From: Candidatus Wolfebacteria bacterium RIFOXYB1_FULL_54_12
GTDB lineage: Bacteria; Patescibacteriota; Minisyncoccia; UBA6257; UBA9933
NCBI GenBank assembly: GCA_001793895.1
Contig: MGIT01000001.1
Location: 106,508 to 170,507, forward strand
DNA length: 64,000 nucleotides
Reading direction: 5' to 3'
The position numbers and the translations under genes are program-made. This document shows, piece by piece, positions 7,607-51,494 of this stretch. Positions within the stretch are counted from its first letter, which is position 1, and every line of letters begins with the position of its first letter. Below the pieces are notes generated by a model. It did not search any database. It had not been told where the DNA came from and worked only from the letters and a program-made list of their open reading frames with translations.

Positions 7607-7621
7607 TTTTTTGTTTATTCA

Positions 7622-7775
7622 AATCCCTTTCGGTGCCGCGGGAGGGAGTTGCCTACAAGTCTCGCTTCGCCGCCGCTCAGCGAGCTCGCAGGCCGCCCCT
7701 CGCGATGTGCCCTGCTGGGCCGCATATCGCTGCGGTCTTAAACTCCCCACGCGGGCAAAGCAGTTTGCCCGCTCC
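7622..7775 (-). ncRNA. candidate structured RNA or att-site remnant. It is a 154 nt GC-rich segment closed by a GGTGCCG/CGGCACC stem, and it reuses the 3' 20 nt of tRNA-Phe.
   Basis: The segment has internal palindromes (gcgagctcgc, and gcgggcaaa-ctgc-tttgcccgc). Its GC content is far above the surrounding sequence. It shares a 38 bp exact direct repeat with the tRNA-Phe 3' flank. Confidence 0.2.
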
Positions 7776-7800
7776 ACGGCACCAACCAGATAAAAATAAA

Positions 7801-7830
7801 AAACATACTCCTCACAAGTATGTCTTTTAT
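7801..7830 (-). terminator. rho-independent terminator downstream of tRNA-Phe
   Basis: acatact-cctcaca-agtatgt, followed by a T-run on the minus strand. Confidence 0.5.
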
Positions 7831-7848
7831 TTTATTCAAATCCCTTTC

Positions 7849-7922
7849 GGTGCCGCGGGAGGGAGTTGAACCCCCGACGCTTGCCTCTTCAGGGCAACGC
7901 TCTACCGCTGAGCTACCGCGGC
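7849..7922 (-). tRNA. tRNA-Phe (GAA)
   Basis: Reverse complement reads GCCGCGGTAGCTCAGCGGTAGAGCGTTGCCCTGAAGAGGCAAGCGTCGGGGGTTCAACTCCCTCCCGCGGCACC. The anticodon loop is cTGAAga. Confidence 0.85.
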
Positions 7923-19170: not shown

Positions 19171-19223
19171 GCCTGCTCAAAAAATAACTATACACTAAGT
19201 ATATCCGACAACGCCCAACAAAA

Positions 19224-19264
19224 CAAAAACCATGCATTAAAATGCATGGTTTTTGTTTTTGTGG
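19224..19264 (-). terminator. rho-independent terminator, copy 1 of a duplicated hairpin
   Basis: aaaaaccatgcatt-aaa-atgcatggttttt gtttttgtgg. Confidence 0.6.
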
Positions 19265-19408
19265 TGTTTGTTTGAAAAAGTCAGAACCCATTTTGAGAAA
19301 GATCCCTAACCGCTCCGCTCGGGGTGCGGCGGAAAAAGAAAAAAAAAATTAGGGAGGCGGGAAGAATCCCGCGCCGTCCGAGTTAAAAAATTGGCACTGG
19401 GCGAATTT

Positions 19409-21829
19409 CTAATAAGTCGAATAGGCGTAGTCAAACACGGCATGAGCTACTGTCTCTAAACTTTTAGCACTACATTTATCGAGCGTATCGCCAGTCGTAT
19501 GATATGGCGGGTATTCAAAATCAATCAACAGGAAACTCGGAATTCCAGCTCGATTGAGCGGGGTGTGATCATCTTGGACACTTTGCCCAACCTTATCTTG
19601 AAAAACGTGGCTGTCCACTTTTTGCGCAATACTCCAAAATGCGTCCGCTTGAGACTGGGCATTTTGCACGGATGATTGCTCCTTGTAAATTCTCAAGTCT
19701 TTATCGCACACCATATCAAGAACAAGTGCGGATACCGGTATATTATTCCCATAAAGTTCGCTCAAATGTTCGGAAAAATAAGTAGAACCGAGAGGTCTCC
19801 AATTGCTATAATCACTGCCTTGATTTATATCTCCCTCTTCTCCATCAAAGAAAACGATGTCCACGCCAACACTCGGTATCACATGAGAATTGCCGAGTAT
19901 CCGCGCTAATTCCACAAGGACGGCAACACCCGAAGCAGAGTCGTTGCCCCCTGGCACTGGTTGATCTTTGTATACGTGATCCTTATCCGCAAGTTTTTTA
20001 CTGTCATAATGTGTCGCTAAAATAATGCGCCGTTCTTGGGTTGGGTATAGACGGCCTATGATATTCGATAATTTATGGATTTTACCGTCTGTCCCTTTGT
20101 AATCCCACGATTGTGTAATTACTTCGTTGGTTTGTTCTTTCATCTCCGCAATTAGAAATTTCTGCACGTTTTCATGCCCGGGTGCGCTCATGTGGCGCGG
20201 CCCATACCTTAGTTGTTGGTTTATCACGGCAAGCATTTCGTTGCCATCAATAAACGGTTTTTCCTTAAAAGTACGCCGGAGAACTTCGGACGTTAAGTAC
20301 TCAACCGGAGAAAAATTGTCGGTGAGAATTGGGTATGGAGACAAATTAAATCTGTCCAAGTTGATAACTTTATTTCGAAGCGAGCTAATGATTGAGTTCT
20401 CATTTTGCAGAATTGAAGCCGCGCTCAAATCAATTTTTTTATTACCATTCCATCCAACCAAAATAATATTTTGGGAATCTGTTTTTCCGGGAGTTTCAAC
20501 CGCAAAAAAATAACTATTTGGAAAAACACTTTGAAAAGTTTTTATCTCCGCAAAAATAAGAGATGGCTCTTGTCTTGATAAATCTCCGATTAAATTAGCG
20601 ATAAACAATCCATCGTCAGATAATTTCTCTTTTGCGATGGTAAAAAATTCCTGCGTTGTAAAGTGAGCAGGAATGGAAAAAAGAGAATGGTACGCATCGC
20701 TAAATATAAAATCATATTTTTTATTCGAATCCCAAAGCAGGCGACGACCATCTTCAGTATAATTGTATAGATTTGAATTGTCTTCTACGGCAAAATATTC
20801 TTTTGCTAATGCCAATAACGATGGTTCAATTTCTGAAACATCGAGTGTCGCGTTTGGCAACTCCGCTAAAAGGGCCTTCGGTATAGAATATGCGCCACCG
20901 CCTATAACTAAAGCATTTCGTACGTCCGGCTTGAAAACTTTGTAGAGAGAATAGTATTTCGTGTATTCATAAACGAGATCGGCCGGGTTATCCGAATCGA
21001 GAAACATCGCACCGGAACCACTCCGATCCTGTTGAAAAAATCTTGTCGGCCTGCTTTCAAACATACCATCGTAGATGGTGATTTTTTCGTAAATACCATC
21101 TTTGCTGTACAATACATCGCCTTTTGTTTGCTGAACCGCAACAATGGTAATAAGGGCTAAAGTGACAACGGCAACCAAAGACTGGGTTAGGCGTTTTTTG
21201 TCAAAACCAAATACCGTAAGTGGGATAAATCCGAGAAGGAAGAGAACAACTCCTGTGGCAATAAAAATATGGTCTATGCCAAAATTAGGTATAAGCACAA
21301 AACCCGCAAGTAGACTGCCAATGATACTCCCCAGAGTAGACCAAAAAAATATTTTACCCGAAACACTTCCCACTCCCTGCTCTGGTGCTTGAAGACTCTG
21401 TAATTTTATAGCATAGGGCGACAAAGTGCCGAGCAATAACGCAGGAACAAGGAACAGCAGCAAAGAAGAGATCAGTGGTCCGCTTGTAAGTGAAAGATTT
21501 TTGCTTAAAATTGGAAGAATTATCAAACCAAAAAAATGAAATACAAGGACAAGAAGACCGCTTACGAGAATTATCCCGAAGAACCACCGTAACGATGGGT
21601 GACGATCTGCAAATTTTCCGCCCACATAATATCCTATGCTAAGAGCTGCGAGTATAACACTTATTATACTTGATACAGTAAAAATTGTGTTTCCATAGTG
21701 AGGCGAAAGGACACGGACGGCAACGACTTCAATAATCAAAACACACGCCCCAGTGATAAATACTGAGATTGGCAGCAAATTTTGCTTTAAAAATTTGTTC
21801 ATGTATTTAATCATGGTAGCAGTTTGCAT
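19409..21829 (-). CDS. fusion protein: polytopic membrane domain plus spermidine/spermine synthase-like methyltransferase fold plus C-terminal M28 zinc peptidase domain
   Basis: 806 aa. The N-terminus has about 8 TM segments. The ALVIGGGAYSIPKALLAELPNATLDVSEIEPSLLALAKEYF segment is spermidine-synthase-like. The C-terminus has GGNDSASGVAVLVELARIL and VFFDGEE (M28 metal ligands). Confidence 0.55.
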   Translation of the reverse strand: MQTATMIKYMNKFLKQNLLPISVFITGACVLIIEVVAVRVLSPHYGNTIFTVSSIISVILAALSIGYYVGGKFADRHPSLRWFFGIILVSGLLVLVFHFFGLIILPILSKNLSLTSGPLISSLLLFLVPALLLGTLSPYAIKLQSLQAPEQGVGSVSGKIFFWSTLGSIIGSLLAGFVLIPNFGIDHIFIATGVVLFLLGFIPLTVFGFDKKRLTQSLVAVVTLALITIVAVQQTKGDVLYSKDGIYEKITIYDGMFESRPTRFFQQDRSGSGAMFLDSDNPADLVYEYTKYYSLYKVFKPDVRNALVIGGGAYSIPKALLAELPNATLDVSEIEPSLLALAKEYFAVEDNSNLYNYTEDGRRLLWDSNKKYDFIFSDAYHSLFSIPAHFTTQEFFTIAKEKLSDDGLFIANLIGDLSRQEPSLIFAEIKTFQSVFPNSYFFAVETPGKTDSQNIILVGWNGNKKIDLSAASILQNENSIISSLRNKVINLDRFNLSPYPILTDNFSPVEYLTSEVLRRTFKEKPFIDGNEMLAVINQQLRYGPRHMSAPGHENVQKFLIAEMKEQTNEVITQSWDYKGTDGKIHKLSNIIGRLYPTQERRIILATHYDSKKLADKDHVYKDQPVPGGNDSASGVAVLVELARILGNSHVIPSVGVDIVFFDGEEGDINQGSDYSNWRPLGSTYFSEHLSELYGNNIPVSALVLDMVCDKDLRIYKEQSSVQNAQSQADAFWSIAQKVDSHVFQDKVGQSVQDDHTPLNRAGIPSFLLIDFEYPPYHTTGDTLDKCSAKSLETVAHAVFDYAYSTY

Positions 21830-21887
21830 ATGATTAGTCTATCCGCCATTGTATTTTTTAAGCGAGGACTATTTTCAAAATATTTCA

Positions 21888-21934
21888 CAAAAACAAAGAC
21901 CACGCATTTTAATGCATGGTTTTTGTTTTTGTGG
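21888..21934 (-). terminator. rho-independent terminator, copy 2 of the duplicated hairpin; it abuts the tRNA-Ala 3' end
   Basis: aaaaacaaagaccacgcatt-ttaa-tgcatggtttttgtttttgtgg. Confidence 0.55.
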
Positions 21935-38874: not shown

Positions 38875-39471
38875 CTACGAAAAAGACCCTTGCAAGGTTC
38901 CGTCCTTGCCGGGGGCTTTTTTATTTAGTTCTATTTTATGCCGCACATCATGGCAATACACGATCGGCGCATCCGTTCGCTTCAACAGGATCGAGCACTT
39001 CTCGACCTTGCTCGGAGAAATAACCACTTCTAACTTTTCTTTCGTCTGCAAAAATTTTACCAGCCCGGCGTAATCACCATCGCTCGTGACAAGGACTTGT
39101 TTGTCGCAATTATTCTCAAATGCATCTACTGACGATTGCAATACGAGATCGGCATCGCAATTTCCCTTAGCCTCGCCCGAGCCATTATAAACGACCTCCT
39201 TGAATATCAATGTAAAGCCTGCCTTTTGCAAAGCGGTATAAAGATCTTTTTGCTTGGGAACAAGCCCTATAAAATAATACGCACAAACAACGCCATACTT
39301 ATCCGAAAGCCACCTTCTTAAGCGATACATGTCAACGCTCCAGCCGTCATTGCCCGTTCCGCGATACAAATTATTCCCGTCAATATACGCAAAATTTTTC
39401 TTGTAGCGATTCATGCCATACTCAGTATACCAAAAATAAAACCAAAGCCCCATGTCAAACTCAAAAACCAA
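38875..39471 (-). CDS. NYN-domain (LabA-like) protein
   Basis: NFAYIDGNNLY...VLVTSDGDYAGLV. Confidence 0.6.
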   Translation of the reverse strand: MVFEFDMGLWFYFWYTEYGMNRYKKNFAYIDGNNLYRGTGNDGWSVDMYRLRRWLSDKYGVVCAYYFIGLVPKQKDLYTALQKAGFTLIFKEVVYNGSGEAKGNCDADLVLQSSVDAFENNCDKQVLVTSDGDYAGLVKFLQTKEKLEVVISPSKVEKCSILLKRTDAPIVYCHDVRHKIELNKKAPGKDGTLQGSFS

Positions 39472-45513: not shown

Positions 45514-46236
45514 ATGTACCAAATAAACACCGCACAATTCACCGGCCCCATAGAAACACTGCTCGAAATGATCGAGGCGCGCAAATTGGAGATCACACAA
45601 GTGAGTCTTGCTTTGGTGACCGATGATTTTCTTAAATTCGTACAGGAAATGAATCTGTCGGGCAAGGAGCGCAACGAAGCGGAAATTCGGTTTCTTTCGG
45701 ACTTTGTCGCAATCGCATCGCGCCTATTATTGATCAAATCAAAAGCACTTCTTCCCTCGCTTGAATTATCGACTGAAGATCAGGAAGATATCAAAGATCT
45801 CGAACATCGCTTGAAGTTCTACCAACAATTCAAACCTGCCATGGTACATGTAAAAACGCTCTATGAACAAGAATCGGTGGCGGTCGCGCGTCCGCTTTTG
45901 CTCGGCCGGCCGACCATTTTCTACCCATCACCCGAAATAACACCGTCAACAATGCACGCGGCGATGGCAACCCTATTCGAAACCCTTAAAGCCGCGGCAC
46001 TTGAGTTCAAAAAGGTTGAGAACACGGTAGTAAGGCTCGAAGAAAAGATCGAGGAAATACTCATGAAGGTTACTGCGGGCATAAAAAGCTTCGGCAACCT
46101 GATCAATGAAAAATCAAAGAAGGAGGTCGTGGTCCTCTTTCTTGCGCTGCTTCACCTGCTACGCGACCAACATATTCACGTGGAACAACCCGACCGCTTC
46201 GGCGACATCGCCATCAAAAAATCCCCCCACGAATGA
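45514..46236 (+). CDS. scpA: segregation and condensation protein A
   Basis: MYQINTAQFTGPIETLLEMIEARKLEITQVSLALVTDDFL. Confidence 0.8.
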   Translation: MYQINTAQFTGPIETLLEMIEARKLEITQVSLALVTDDFLKFVQEMNLSGKERNEAEIRFLSDFVAIASRLLLIKSKALLPSLELSTEDQEDIKDLEHRLKFYQQFKPAMVHVKTLYEQESVAVARPLLLGRPTIFYPSPEITPSTMHAAMATLFETLKAAALEFKKVENTVVRLEEKIEEILMKVTAGIKSFGNLINEKSKKEVVVLFLALLHLLRDQHIHVEQPDRFGDIAIKKSPHE

Positions 46237-46244
46237 TGCGGATA

Positions 46245-46291
46245 AAAAACGCTTAATAATATTGCTATAGCAATATTATTAAGCGTTTTTT
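46245..46291 (+). terminator. rho-independent terminator (perfect palindrome) after scpA
   Basis: aaaaaacgcttaataatattgctatagcaatattattaagcgtttttt. Confidence 0.7.
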
Positions 46292-46339
46292 ATTTCAGAA
46301 TTTCTCTGACTCTTGTCGCAGTCATCCATGTCACCGCCC

Positions 46340-46393
46340 TTATACCCTTTGGTGATAGAATATATCCACGATCAGGCGGTTATCGGGTTTCAT
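46340..46393 (-). pseudogene. duplicated 3' terminal fragment (17 codons plus stop) of the SDR gene; left direct repeat of the HEPN insert
   Basis: Reverse complement encodes MKPDNRLIVDIFYHQRV*. The SDR C-terminus is MKPDNRLIVDTFYHQRV*. 50 of 54 nt are identical to 47039..47092. Confidence 0.7.
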
Positions 46394-46394
46394 A

Positions 46395-47030
46395 TTACAT
46401 CGGTATTAGTTTAGCGCCCTCACTTTGTATCTTCTTATATATTCTTTCTATTCCATCAATATGTCTCACCCCTCTTTCATTATTACCCGCTTGCGCTTCA
46501 TGAATATTTTTTATCCAATCTTTTAACATTAGGATGCCTCCTTGCTTAATCAACTCATAAAGATCCTTTGGTTTCACCATAATTACAAGAGACTCTCCTA
46601 ATTTATTAATTCCACTCTCATACTCATCAACTTCTTTATCAGAAAATTTATTCGACGCCAGCGCCATATAAATACCATCACTTTCATTAGATAACCCGAA
46701 GAAATGGACTAAGGAATTTCTAAGATGCCAAAGACGTTCACTGCTTAATTTATGCCACCGTGTATTTTTAACATATTCCACATTTTGGCCTATTAAACAA
46801 AATGTACGGAGCCAAGAAGTAAACCGCTTGCTTTGTGTTTCGCATTTTCCATCATATTCATACCAGTAACTTGCAAGAATATCTAACAAGCTAAAAACAA
46901 TTATCGCTTGAATTCTAGGAGAAGAAGGATAATCACATAAAAAAATACTGTTGATATCTCTTATCACATCGTTAATGAAATCAACCACCTCCTTCTTCCG
47001 CTCATTATGCTTTTCAATCATTTGAACCAA
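46395..47030 (-). CDS. HEPN-like protein (Rx4-6H motif) on an AT-rich insert; possible toxin or abortive-infection-type nuclease
   Basis: 211 aa. The LWHLRNSLVHF segment carries an R-x4-H motif. The gene is visibly AT-rich compared with its flanks. Confidence 0.5.
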   Translation of the reverse strand: MVQMIEKHNERKKEVVDFINDVIRDINSIFLCDYPSSPRIQAIIVFSLLDILASYWYEYDGKCETQSKRFTSWLRTFCLIGQNVEYVKNTRWHKLSSERLWHLRNSLVHFFGLSNESDGIYMALASNKFSDKEVDEYESGINKLGESLVIMVKPKDLYELIKQGGILMLKDWIKNIHEAQAGNNERGVRHIDGIERIYKKIQSEGAKLIPM

Positions 47031-47038
47031 ATATAATA

Positions 47039-47770
47039 TTATACCCTTTGATGATAGAATGTATCCACGATTAGGCGGTTATCGGGTTTCATTTCTCCGA
47101 TGACCGTCTTGTAAATGACCTCCGCGACATCTGCGGGCGTATGGTGCGCCTCTGTGCCTTTGAACAGTTCTTTGAACATGTTCGTCCCTACTGACCCGGG
47201 GGTAATGGTGATCACATCGATCCCCGACTGCACCAGCTCGGCCGACAACGCCTGCGTAAACGCGATCACGCCGGCCTTGGTCGCCGAATAGACGGCAAGC
47301 TCGGGAATGCCACAGAGTCCCGCTCCCGATGAAATATTAATGATGCATTTTCGTTTCACGGTACAACCGTCATGATCGGTTTCCGCAACGCCGGTATCCA
47401 TGCTCTTCAAAGCCTCCTGCGTAACAATAAACATGCCGCCCAGGTTCACATTGACCATGCTTTGCCACTCGGCTTCCGTCGTATCCGCAAATCGCTTGCG
47501 CTGGGCAACGCCCGCATTGTTGATAAGCACATCGATGCCGCCAAAACGCTTCTTCGCTTCCGCAATGGCAAGGGCGACCTGCGCCCGATCGCACACATCC
47601 CCTTCTATGACCAATGTGCGATCAATAGGAAGCGTCATCGCTTCCGAGCTTGTCGCACCATGGGAATAAATGACAACATTCGCACCTTCGGCAATGAACT
47701 TTTTCGCGGTTTCCAATCCGATGCCCGTCGCCCCACCGGTAATGAATACTGTCTTTCCTTTGATATCCAT
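47039..47770 (-). CDS. short-chain dehydrogenase/reductase (SDR) family oxidoreductase
   Basis: MDIKGKTVFITGGATGIGLETAKKF (TGxxxGxG), NNAG, and a YxxxK-like motif. The listed start at 47842 lies inside the repeat TIR. Confidence 0.8.
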   Translation of the reverse strand: MDIKGKTVFITGGATGIGLETAKKFIAEGANVVIYSHGATSSEAMTLPIDRTLVIEGDVCDRAQVALAIAEAKKRFGGIDVLINNAGVAQRKRFADTTEAEWQSMVNVNLGGMFIVTQEALKSMDTGVAETDHDGCTVKRKCIINISSGAGLCGIPELAVYSATKAGVIAFTQALSAELVQSGIDVITITPGSVGTNMFKELFKGTEAHHTPADVAEVIYKTVIGEMKPDNRLIVDTFYHQRV

Positions 47771-47796: not shown

Positions 47797-47824
47797 TGTC
47801 ATTCCGGCGGAGGCCGGAATGACA
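47797..47824. repeat. TGTCATTCC-family minimal single-module element
   Basis: tgtcattccggcggaggccggaatgaca. Confidence 0.85.
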
Positions 47825-47836
47825 ACATAAGAAGTT

Positions 47837-47904
47837 TGTCATCCTGAACTCGTTTCAGGATCTCATGGTAGTGCGATGAGATTCCGGCCTCCGCCGGAAT
47901 GACA
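47837..47904. repeat. TGTCATTCC nested-palindrome element (composite, 18 bp spacer)
   Basis: tgtcatcctgaactcgtttcaggatc tcatggtagtgcgatgag attccggcctccgccggaatgaca. Confidence 0.85.
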
Positions 47905-49490: not shown

Positions 49491-51494
49491 TTAAGTTATA
49501 TCCAAGTTGCGCACCAATGTTGCATTTGACTGGATGAACTGCTTGCGTGGCGCGACTTCGTCGCCCATCAATATCTCAAACAATCGATCGGCTTCCTGAG
49601 CGTCATCGATCTCAACCTGAAGCAACGTACGGAACTCCGGATTCATAGTCGTTTCCCAAAGCTGGTCGGGGTTCATTTCACCAAGACCCTTATAGCGCTG
49701 CACATTTACGTTCGACTCGCTCTTTTTACCGGCGGTCATTTCCGAAACGGCCTTGTCTTTTTGCTCGGGCGTGTACACATAGCGCACATCCTTACCAAGC
49801 TGGAGGCGGAACAATGGCGGCTGTGCAATGTACAAGAAACCTCCATCGATCACCGGGCGGAAGAAACGATAGAACAAGGTCAATAACAATGTTCGAATGT
49901 GCGCTCCATCAGTATCGGCGTCGGTCATGATGACAACTTTATGGTACCGCAACTTCTCGATATCAAAGCTATCGGAAATGGCAGTGCCGAGCGCAATGAC
50001 CAATGACTTGATTTCGTTATTGACAAGCATCTTGTCGAGCCGCGCGCGCTCGACGTTCAAGATCTTTCCCTTAAGCGGAAGAATGGCCTGGAACCGGCGA
50101 TCACGACCCTGCTTGGCCGAGCCTCCGGCAGAATCGCCTTCGACTATGTACAGCTCGGAATCAGCAGCTTTGCGACTGGAACAATCGGCAAGCTTCCCCG
50201 GCAGAGTCATACCCTCGAGCATGCCTTTGCGCAACACGGTATCCTTTGCGGCTTTTGCGGCCTTACGGGCCTTTTGGGCCAAGATACATTTTTCGATGAT
50301 CGCTTTGCCATCACCCGAATATTTTTCAAAGTATTCCTTTAGCGCTTCAGAGAGCACGGACTCCACTGCTCCGCGCGCTGCCGGCGTTCCTAAGCGGGCC
50401 TTGGTCTGCCCCTCGAATTGCGGATCGCGCAGCTTCACGGAGATGATCGCCGTAATACCCTCGCGCACATCATCGCCGGTCAAGTTATCTTCCGTTCCTT
50501 TTAATGCATTTATGTTGCGCGCGAATTCATTCAACGCGCGCGTCAGGGCCGTGCGAAAACCGGTCACATGCATACCGCCATCCGATGTATAGATATTGTT
50601 TGCAAAACTCAACTCACGAGCATCAGGGTCGTCGTTATAAATAAATGCCGCCTCAACATCAATACTCTCGTAACTTTTATGCGCATAGAAAGTCTCCTTG
50701 TGCACTGGGGTATGATTGCGATTTACATAACGGACGAACGAAATAAGTCCCCCTTCAAAATAGAAGGAGTAATAGAATGGAAGATCCTCTCGATCATCAA
50801 CGATCTCGATGCGGATCCCTTTGGTCAAAAACGCCTGTTGGCGCAAATGGCTTACGATTTCTTTGCGGTCGAATTCGAGCGTGGAGAAAATGGACCCGTC
50901 CGGCTTAAATAAGACCTTTGTTCCGTTGGCCGTGCACTTACCCGCTTTCTTTACATCGTATTGCGGTTTGCCGATCTTATATTCCTGCACATACATCGTG
51001 CCTTCTTTGCACACTTCGATCTTCATCCATGTCGAAAGTGCGTTTACGACCGAAAGGCCCACGCCGTGCAGACCGCCGGAAACCTTGTACGAATCGCCGT
51101 CAAACTTACCGCCGGCATGTAATGTAGTAGCCGCGGTTTCGAGTGCGGATTTTTTTGTCTTCGGGTGAATGTCTACGGGGATACCGCGCCCATCGTCGGC
51201 AACCGTAACCGTGCCGTCTTTCAACAGCTCTACCTTAATGCTCTTGGCATACCCAGCCATGGCTTCATCGAGCGAGTTGTCAAACACCTCCCAGATCAAA
51301 TGATGCAATCCCTGTTCGCCGGTCGAACCGATATACATACCGGGGCGCTTGCGCACCGGCTCCAATCCTTCGAGTACCTGAATATCCTTCGCGCTATACG
51401 AAGCATTCCCCCTGTTGTCGGTCGGTTCGTCCAACTTTTTGGCAGCCGCTTTCCGAGGCTTTTCTTCTTCTATGTTTTCTGCTTTTTTCGCCAT
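49491..51494 (-). CDS. gyrB: DNA gyrase subunit B (short form of 667 aa)
   Basis: GHKL ATPase (LHHLIWEVFDNSLDEAMAGY), Toprim (EGDSAGGSAKQGRDRRFQAILPLKGKILNVE), and a C-terminal QFIQSNA. Confidence 0.85.
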   Translation of the reverse strand: MAKKAENIEEEKPRKAAAKKLDEPTDNRGNASYSAKDIQVLEGLEPVRKRPGMYIGSTGEQGLHHLIWEVFDNSLDEAMAGYAKSIKVELLKDGTVTVADDGRGIPVDIHPKTKKSALETAATTLHAGGKFDGDSYKVSGGLHGVGLSVVNALSTWMKIEVCKEGTMYVQEYKIGKPQYDVKKAGKCTANGTKVLFKPDGSIFSTLEFDRKEIVSHLRQQAFLTKGIRIEIVDDREDLPFYYSFYFEGGLISFVRYVNRNHTPVHKETFYAHKSYESIDVEAAFIYNDDPDARELSFANNIYTSDGGMHVTGFRTALTRALNEFARNINALKGTEDNLTGDDVREGITAIISVKLRDPQFEGQTKARLGTPAARGAVESVLSEALKEYFEKYSGDGKAIIEKCILAQKARKAAKAAKDTVLRKGMLEGMTLPGKLADCSSRKAADSELYIVEGDSAGGSAKQGRDRRFQAILPLKGKILNVERARLDKMLVNNEIKSLVIALGTAISDSFDIEKLRYHKVVIMTDADTDGAHIRTLLLTLFYRFFRPVIDGGFLYIAQPPLFRLQLGKDVRYVYTPEQKDKAVSEMTAGKKSESNVNVQRYKGLGEMNPDQLWETTMNPEFRTLLQVEIDDAQEADRLFEILMGDEVAPRKQFIQSNATLVRNLDIT

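Follow-up and report, generated by a model that had tools for sequence, protein, structure and literature searches.

A repeat-flanked single-gene insertion at the 3' end of an oxidoreductase gene in a Wolfebacteria genome, carrying a putative HEPN-like protein

Islands at tRNA 3' ends, and likewise phage 21 and e14 at icd, integrate at the end of a host gene and supply a replacement for the end that they displace. Cis-mobilisable elements (CIMEs), described beside related integrative and conjugative elements in Firmicutes, are remnants that are flanked by attachment (att) sites and lack genes for recombination and transfer. In dusA islands, the element replaces the gene end with its own copy and leaves a remnant behind (PMC4482086). 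An insertion with a comparable layout is described here from a stretch of 64,000 nucleotides, referred to as the window, of Candidatus Wolfebacteria bacterium RIFOXYB1_FULL_54_12 (contig MGIT01000001.1, positions 106,508 to 170,507, forward strand): at the 3' end of a gene for a short-chain dehydrogenase/reductase (SDR), the window contains 699 bp that are absent from a sister species, and these carry a single gene whose product appears to be HEPN-like.

As in dusA-type and tRNA islands, the unit is bounded by direct repeats that duplicate the terminus of the target gene, the host gene is intact, a remnant of its end lies on the far side and relatives have empty sites; unlike these islands, it measures only 699 bp, consists of one cargo open reading frame (ORF) with 9 nt of spacer, and holds neither an integrase nor other element genes. 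With CIMEs it shares att-like repeats on both sides, the restriction to cargo and the lack of a recombinase, but no related complete element was seen for the insert in the window. Integron cassettes resemble it as promoterless single ORFs with minimal non-coding DNA and an upstream host promoter; they differ from it in that here the repeat consists of target coding sequence, present as a direct duplication and devoid of an attC-like hairpin, and no IntI was found. The element is best seen as a further case of known kinds, namely the HEPN superfamily and att-flanked cargo insertions, rather than as a system of a new kind; the insertion is real but fairly ordinary, small and limited to a single gene. 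Genomes of the candidate phyla radiation (CPR) are small and streamlined, and gene gain in them is poorly documented. The present case offers base-pair resolution, with filled and empty sites, a host gene that is preserved, and a promoter and a terminator that are apparently borrowed from it.

Filled and empty sites at the SDR terminus

The target of the insertion is the SDR gene on the minus strand (47039..47770; 243 aa in databases; Pfam adh_short, E 1e-50). Its working 3' end, comprising the last 17 codons, which end in VDTFYHQRV, and the stop, forms copy A of a direct repeat (47039..47092, minus strand, attL-like) and belongs to the uninterrupted SDR ORF. Copy B (46340..46393, minus strand, attR-like) is a displaced remnant of the same end, a 17-codon mini-ORF that closes with VDIFYHQRV and a stop. 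Translation of the minus strand gives MKPDNRLIVDTFYHQRV for copy A (47092->47039) and MKPDNRLIVDIFYHQRV for copy B (46393->46340), each followed by the stop, in agreement with the initial annotation, according to which both repeats encode the SDR terminus; the limits of the repeat run exactly from an ATG codon to the final base of the TAA stop. The two copies, of 54 nt each, lie where they had been placed, while their identity is 51/54 (94%) rather than the 50/54 first given. A repeat pair of such quality appeared in none of 100 dinucleotide-preserving shuffles.

The copies are separated by 645 bp of unique inserted DNA (46394..47038, minus strand; GC ~0.34), in which there is, as annotated, exactly one ORF. 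This cargo gene (46395..47030, minus strand) would encode a stand-alone HEPN-like protein with an RNSLVH motif at residues 104-109. The ORF has 211 aa when read from a TTG at 47030 and 208 aa in the database call from an ATG at 47021, the latter being probably the start. It begins 8 nt past the SDR stop and finishes 1 nt before copy B, for a spacer total of 9 nt. In composition it stands far from the host genes of the window (n=35): its GC of 0.343 and its GC at third codon positions (GC3) of 0.301 compare with 0.509±0.027 and 0.596±0.047, respectively (z = -6.2 for both), so that the insert is indeed AT-rich relative to its surroundings.

Relatives were found by scanning species-representative genomes with the SDR protein. 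Two were obtained: the sister species Wolfebacteria RIFOXYD12_FULL_48_21 (L015), with 94% identity in the SDR and 88-94% identity in the DNA over the region, and the more distant Wolfebacteria GW2011_GWB1_47_1 (L016), with 81% identity in the SDR. In L015, a spacer of ~100 nt separates the SDR stop from the same terminator, a perfect palindrome, beyond which lies the convergent scpA; there is no insert. In the pairwise alignment, the window equals the L015 sequence plus exactly 699 bp, i.e., one repeat copy and the 645 unique bases, and the flank past copy B (46200-46339) is near-identical to the sequence after the SDR stop in L015. The 699-bp unit, present in the window and absent from the sister species, is a genuine insertion; copy A preserves the SDR reading frame and the old terminus is left as copy B. 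The proposal that an insertion had entered the SDR terminus and kept the gene end is supported by the L015 site, an empty site of the kind that the initial annotation had suggested looking for in related genomes. On the other side, scpA (45514..46236, plus strand; Pfam SMC_ScpA), convergent with SDR, is a neighbour beyond the insertion and is unaffected by it; the bidirectional terminator common to scpA and the SDR unit (46242..46293) is a perfect 26+26-nt palindrome that is 100% conserved in L015. The view that the insert splits scpA from scpB is incorrect, since in L015, even without the insert, scpA is followed by the shared terminator and the convergent SDR.

An assembly artefact is ruled out by the identity of the insert in at least 10 independent contigs. 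The 1.1-kb region was retrieved from 10 contigs of different samples and assemblers and is 100% identical, with two contigs at 99.9%, and every contig with an identical ScpA that is long enough shows the filled site. A same-species empty junction was found neither in metagenome contigs of the Joint Genome Institute nor in contigs with an identical ScpA.

Copies A and B diverge by 5.6% (3/54), which is similar in magnitude to what separates the window from L015 in the region, and the insertion is for this reason judged to be old and fixed, not recent. Two of the three mismatches are synonymous in A. Compared with L015 and L016, one is derived in the working copy A and synonymous, another is a derived Thr-to-Ile exchange in the remnant copy B, and the third is of ambiguous polarity; A and B are separated by 3 differences, as against ~6 between either copy and L015. 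That the divergence of the copies is comparable to the 7-9% divergence of the species' DNA in the region, so that the insertion is not recent, would also agree with the reverse polarity, in which cassette and repeats were ancestral to the window species and L015 and were lost from L015 by recombination between the 54-nt repeats; direct repeats do permit such a precise loss. This order of events is very improbable: L016 has neither the cargo gene nor a remnant or flanking repeat in its SDR-scpA interval (L016 5733-8603) and carries other genes there, and the cargo gene is still strongly atypical in GC3. In any case, reversing the polarity alters the timing only and not the nature of the element. 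The L016 interval holds four unrelated genes of 159, 120, 228 and 356 aa, which shows that the SDR-scpA interval varies within this group.

The position of the insert also suggests how its gene could be expressed. No terminator lies between the SDR stop and the cargo ORF, and the shared terminator at 46242-46293 is now downstream of both SDR and cargo. Because the cargo is situated between the SDR stop and the old terminator with no other in between, read-through from the SDR promoter is the simplest route; transcription would then end at the old shared terminator. Alternatively, transcription of the gene may start from a -10 box formed by the junction: a promoter-like site (47038..47067, minus strand) combines a -35 element TGGATA, 18 nt of spacing and a -10 element TATAAT (10/12 match), the latter being completed by the first inserted base, where the remnant copy reads TATAAG. 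This site may drive the cargo gene; promoter-like sites in the region are no more frequent than in shuffles.

Possible routes of integration

In the window, the direct repeats cover the 3' end of SDR, the target gene, which is regenerated; in L015, the empty site contains the repeat sequence in a single copy. Both features belong to att-type integration, which could have proceeded in the following manner: A small cargo cassette, horizontally acquired, would have been placed in the SDR 3' end by Campbell-like recombination within a ~54-bp stretch corresponding to the SDR terminus. The incoming DNA would have been a small circle, or possibly a larger element that was trimmed later. The two repeats would represent attL and attR, and the recombinase would have acted in trans or have been lost. 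Att-type or Campbell-type integration with an enzyme that acted in trans or was lost is the preferred explanation, and it is put forward with moderate confidence.

Two further repeat pairs in the window bear on this explanation. At tRNA-Ala (19220..21934, minus strand), 45-nt direct repeats (19220-19264 and 21890-21934, 41/45 identical), which consist of the last 4 nt of the tRNA and its terminator hairpin, bracket a gene for 806 aa (19409-21829; GC 0.41, GC3 z -4.7). Its product is predicted to be a fusion of a membrane part (N-terminus like that of the major facilitator superfamily), a spermidine-synthase-like (spermine-synthase-like) part and a peptidase M28. In two relatives (L083 and L084), the tyrosyl-tRNA synthetase gene, tRNA-Ala, the terminator and the next gene follow each other without anything between, which makes these empty sites; the tRNA-Ala case is proven to be a second lineage-specific insertion with the same architecture as that at SDR. 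At tRNA-Phe (7608..7868, minus strand), 44-nt direct repeats (7608-7651 and 7825-7868, 42/44 identical) comprise the last 20 nt of the tRNA and 24 nt downstream. Inside this pair are 173 GC-rich nt, in which neither an ORF nor a tRNA was called and to which nothing in Rfam matches; the pair resembles a scar left by an integrated element. Both tRNA-end pairs fit the same process as the SDR insertion. All three repeat pairs of the window measure 44-54 nt and start in a gene 3' end (SDR, tRNA-Ala and tRNA-Phe), and the att explanation is supported by them because such a start is a hallmark of integrase att sites.

Several observations weigh against att-type integration. No recombinase or integrase gene is present in the insert or within +-6 kb of it, and 20 other window ORFs yielded none either, in line with what had been noted at the outset. 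Neither a second copy of the cassette, for which the initial annotation had recommended a search elsewhere, nor a circular form or another insertion site was found, and the nearest homologues of the cargo protein are only ~45% identical. The spacers of 8 nt and 1 nt make it unlikely that a larger element was trimmed by random deletion. Substitutions in SDR that are the lineage's own, relative to L015 and L016, are present in both A and B, and these seem to fit an exact duplication of the target as well as an att site borne by the element. Finally, a single site-specific enzyme cannot explain all three repeat pairs, because they share no sequence.

Some of these points would favour an illegitimate insertion with a long target duplication, in which the repeats are not att sites at all: foreign DNA may have been joined into a staggered break of ~54 nt that was subsequently filled in, or a template switch may have resumed ~54 nt upstream. 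The lineage-own substitutions in both copies, the lack of a recombinase in the insert, its surroundings and the 20 window ORFs, three repeat pairs that have no common motif and yet similar lengths (44-54 nt), and a cassette essentially without non-coding DNA of its own are all consistent with such a route. A difficulty is the start of the three duplications in gene 3' ends, two of them those of tRNAs, which resembles the preference of integrases and not the distribution of random breaks, even if selection for harmless sites could mimic it. Moreover, inspection revealed no microhomology at the junctions of the insert. No transposon family is known to make duplications of ~50 bp, which likewise counts against a target duplication. 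Illegitimate insertion is regarded as rather unlikely, and as less probable than att-type integration.

Two other kinds of element were considered and rejected. A transposon or insertion sequence is ruled out by the absence of terminal inverted repeats (none of those in the insert scored above shuffles) and of a transposase, by the 54-bp length of the duplication and by the lack of end motifs common to the three inserts. An integron cassette is ruled out because the repeat has no attC-like hairpin; neither copy folds better than shuffled sequence does (z-scores of 0.5 and 0.0). Of the site-specific, cassette-like insertion with att duplication that had been suggested initially, the regeneration of the gene end stands; site-specificity is a matter of deduction, and the likeness to integron cassettes does not extend to the hairpin.

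A more far-reaching interpretation of the three pairs is improbable. Wolfebacteria, and perhaps other CPR bacteria, might possess an undescribed process of cassette insertion, in which a transcription unit has 44-54 bp of its 3' end duplicated, be it a gene terminus or a tRNA end together with its terminator, no recombinase is encoded by the element, and promoterless cargo, in this instance a member of an unannotated SEC-C/HEPN-like defence family, comes under host read-through. If this were true, its footprints in the 64 kb would be the three repeat pairs, for two of which empty sites are proven. If the three repeat-flanked insertions do share a mechanism, they would provide a pointer to the integration of DNA in recombinase-poor symbionts.

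The cargo protein and its family

HEPN ribonucleases (RNases) are recognised by a signature in which an Rx4-6H motif closes helix 3, its arginine is followed by a polar residue, and helix 2 contributes an acidic one (PMC3710099). The window protein contains HLRNSLVHF, with R104 and H109 in Rx4H (RNxxxH) spacing, the motif that had suggested a HEPN RNase in the initial annotation. A word-indexed search yielded 7 clusters with 34-46% identity to the protein, and an exhaustive profile search yielded 218 representative clusters (50% identity) at E<=1e-3. Residue conservation was counted in an alignment of 89 family members: R104 and H109 are each conserved in 88/89 and their four-residue spacing in 89/89, so that the R/H dyad is not a peculiarity of one sequence; N83 is likewise found in 88/89. 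Position 105, directly after the arginine, is N in 58/89 members, among them the window protein, C in 14/89 and S in 12/89, and position 50 is acidic in 89/89 (D in 59, E in 30).

Two AlphaFold2 models (pLDDT of 78.9 and 83.3) depict an all-alpha protein with a small beta-hairpin and a long C-terminal helical pair. Position 50 is within a long predicted helix (38-60), and in both models residues 97-109 form a helix that stops at H109 and is followed by a low-confidence loop, so that the motif appears at the C-terminal end of helix 3 with a loop behind it, as in HEPN proteins. The window protein has the Rx4-6H motif, a polar residue (N, D or H) after its arginine and, in the helix ahead of the motif helix, an acidic residue. 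In addition, family members produce recurring sub-threshold matches (single, E 0.001-0.008) to HEPN_Cthe2314, HEPN_Apea, pEK499_p136, Cas13a and Cas13-ApeA.

The HEPN assignment is weakened by the database searches. For the window protein, searches of Pfam (2025), NCBIfam (2026), PADLOC and PHROGs gave no match, and no HEPN model of any kind reaches it. A sequence profile search of the PDB with the protein returned nothing meaningful but spurious NQO1 matches. Foldseek against the PDB gave a HEPN toxin as best match at E 0.9, with none significant, and the fold evidence for HEPN varies with the structure model used. The profile search that had been called for thus retrieved nothing for the 211-aa protein itself and weak HEPN matches for its relatives; of the earlier claim of a HEPN RNase motif, the presence of HLRNSLVHF and the near-invariance of its dyad hold, and membership in the superfamily relies on the motif and on matches below threshold.

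These negative results could mean that the cargo is a helical protein with another role, for instance in binding nucleic acids or proteins, in which the arginine and the histidine are coincidental or part of a different active site. No model in the four libraries reaches threshold for the window protein, and the near-invariant N83 lies outside the classic HEPN signature, as such a reading would have it. Coincidence would nevertheless have to account for an arginine and a histidine that are conserved in 88/89 members at canonical spacing, for the polar residue after the arginine and the acidic one in the preceding long helix, and for five independent sub-threshold matches that all point to HEPN families; a role unrelated to HEPN is accordingly judged unlikely. 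The cargo protein is HEPN-like as far as its predicted catalytic signature is concerned, and not by profile membership. A HEPN-like toxin or defence protein is a reasonable reading because the R/H dyad is family-wide and the weak HEPN matches recur.

An N-terminal SEC-C zinc motif occurs in 22/89 members and is absent from the window protein and its nearest relatives. The matches of family members to the PADLOC systems E2, E1-E2 and PDC-S12 are probably carried by this motif; besides them, there are scattered single profile matches, among which only the HEPN theme recurs.

HEPN proteins of abortive infection and defence (AbiV and ApeA-type) are the closest described counterparts. They have in common with the cargo an RNxxxH motif at a helix end, an acidic residue in the preceding helix and an all-alpha core, and are likewise AT-rich, horizontally moved single genes, and relatives of the cargo adjoin restriction-modification and Shedu genes. 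The cargo differs from them in that it falls below threshold for every HEPN model and its family is unannotated, in its extra beta-hairpin and long C-terminal helical pair, in the SEC-C motif that is added in a quarter of the scanned members, and in having no MNT or other partner. Another single-gene abortive-infection system, Rugutis from a Lactococcus plasmid, consists of a 359-aa protein in which an N-terminal SEC-C motif precedes a helical domain that is predicted with confidence and has no significant PDB match, and it is triggered by the large terminase (PMC11381338, PMC12184496). The SEC-C-bearing relatives of the cargo match Rugutis in architecture only, which is a lead; they measure ~250 aa compared with 359 aa, and the window protein has no SEC-C. 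A tblastn search with a SEC-C-bearing family member against 72,556 plasmids gave no match.

Genomic context was analysed at fifteen further loci of the family. With one exception, the family gene has a GC of 0.27-0.38 at these loci, which is low even where the flanks are not. No conserved neighbour or antitoxin-type partner exists across the 15 loci, and the insert itself, with its one ORF, has no gene for MNT or another antitoxin; the idea of a cognate partner, raised in the initial annotation, finds no footing in either place. The genes upstream of the family member at L011 and L013, which were considered as partners, are unrelated membrane proteins. Three of the longer contexts look defence-related: two D12 methylases and an AlwI endonuclease are directly upstream of the family member at L068, genes for Mrr, PD-(D/E)XK and Shedu SduA_C proteins are beside it at L080, and a LexA-methylase fusion is near it at L062. 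A defence role of the cargo protein is probable from these comparisons of sequence and context; that it is three contexts on which the role depends is a point against it.

If the HEPN-like reading holds, the product would be a metal-independent RNase that uses the R104/H109 dyad together with N105 and D50, most likely as a single-gene abortive-infection or defence toxin which stays inactive until it is triggered. It would act without a dedicated antitoxin partner. The family (~218 clusters with a HEPN-type signature, often fused to SEC-C) is unrecognised by the current defence and domain libraries and is a candidate for such catalogues.

Relatives of the cargo are missing from phage, viral-contig and plasmid collections (scan and tblastn), and an origin from a phage or plasmid has no support from them. 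Nor are flanking repeats a trait of the whole family: a pair is present at L012 and at none of 13 other loci. This L012 pair (189-230 and 1094-1135), a direct repeat of 39-42 nt with ~86% identity, brackets the cargo homologue, ends in TTGACA and lies off the low-GC borders; it may reflect repetition of a promoter region instead of a duplicated target. Two unusual genes lie beside the SEC-C/HEPN-like homologue at L062 (845-2338 and 5979-9143). They encode a fusion of LexA (DNA-binding and S24 peptidase parts) with an N6/N4 DNA methylase, and a protein of 1054 aa with a major-vault-protein shoulder and repeat domains.

Other features of the window

Two families of palindromes that resemble repetitive extragenic palindromes (REPs) are intergenic in the window and are not expected by chance. 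The first, TGTCATTCC[C/G]GCGnnnGC[C/G]GGAAT, has 14 matches (positions 1451, 1685, 15471, 16117, 29027/29065, 45472, 47797-47904, 51539 and 52964), and the second, TGTCATCCTGAACTCGTTTCAGGATCTC, has 4 copies (559, 17329, 45344 and 47837). These REP-like elements flank the SDR/scpA block and are not at the borders of the insert; a similar element exists in L016.

The gyrB gene is polymorphic for an intein: in one strain of the same population (L006 112-3411), it encodes 1099 aa with an intein (PF14890), and in the window (49491-51494) it encodes 667 aa without one. A gene for a NYN-domain protein (38875-39471) has the lowest GC among the scanned host genes (0.437, z -2.7) and may be another acquired gene.

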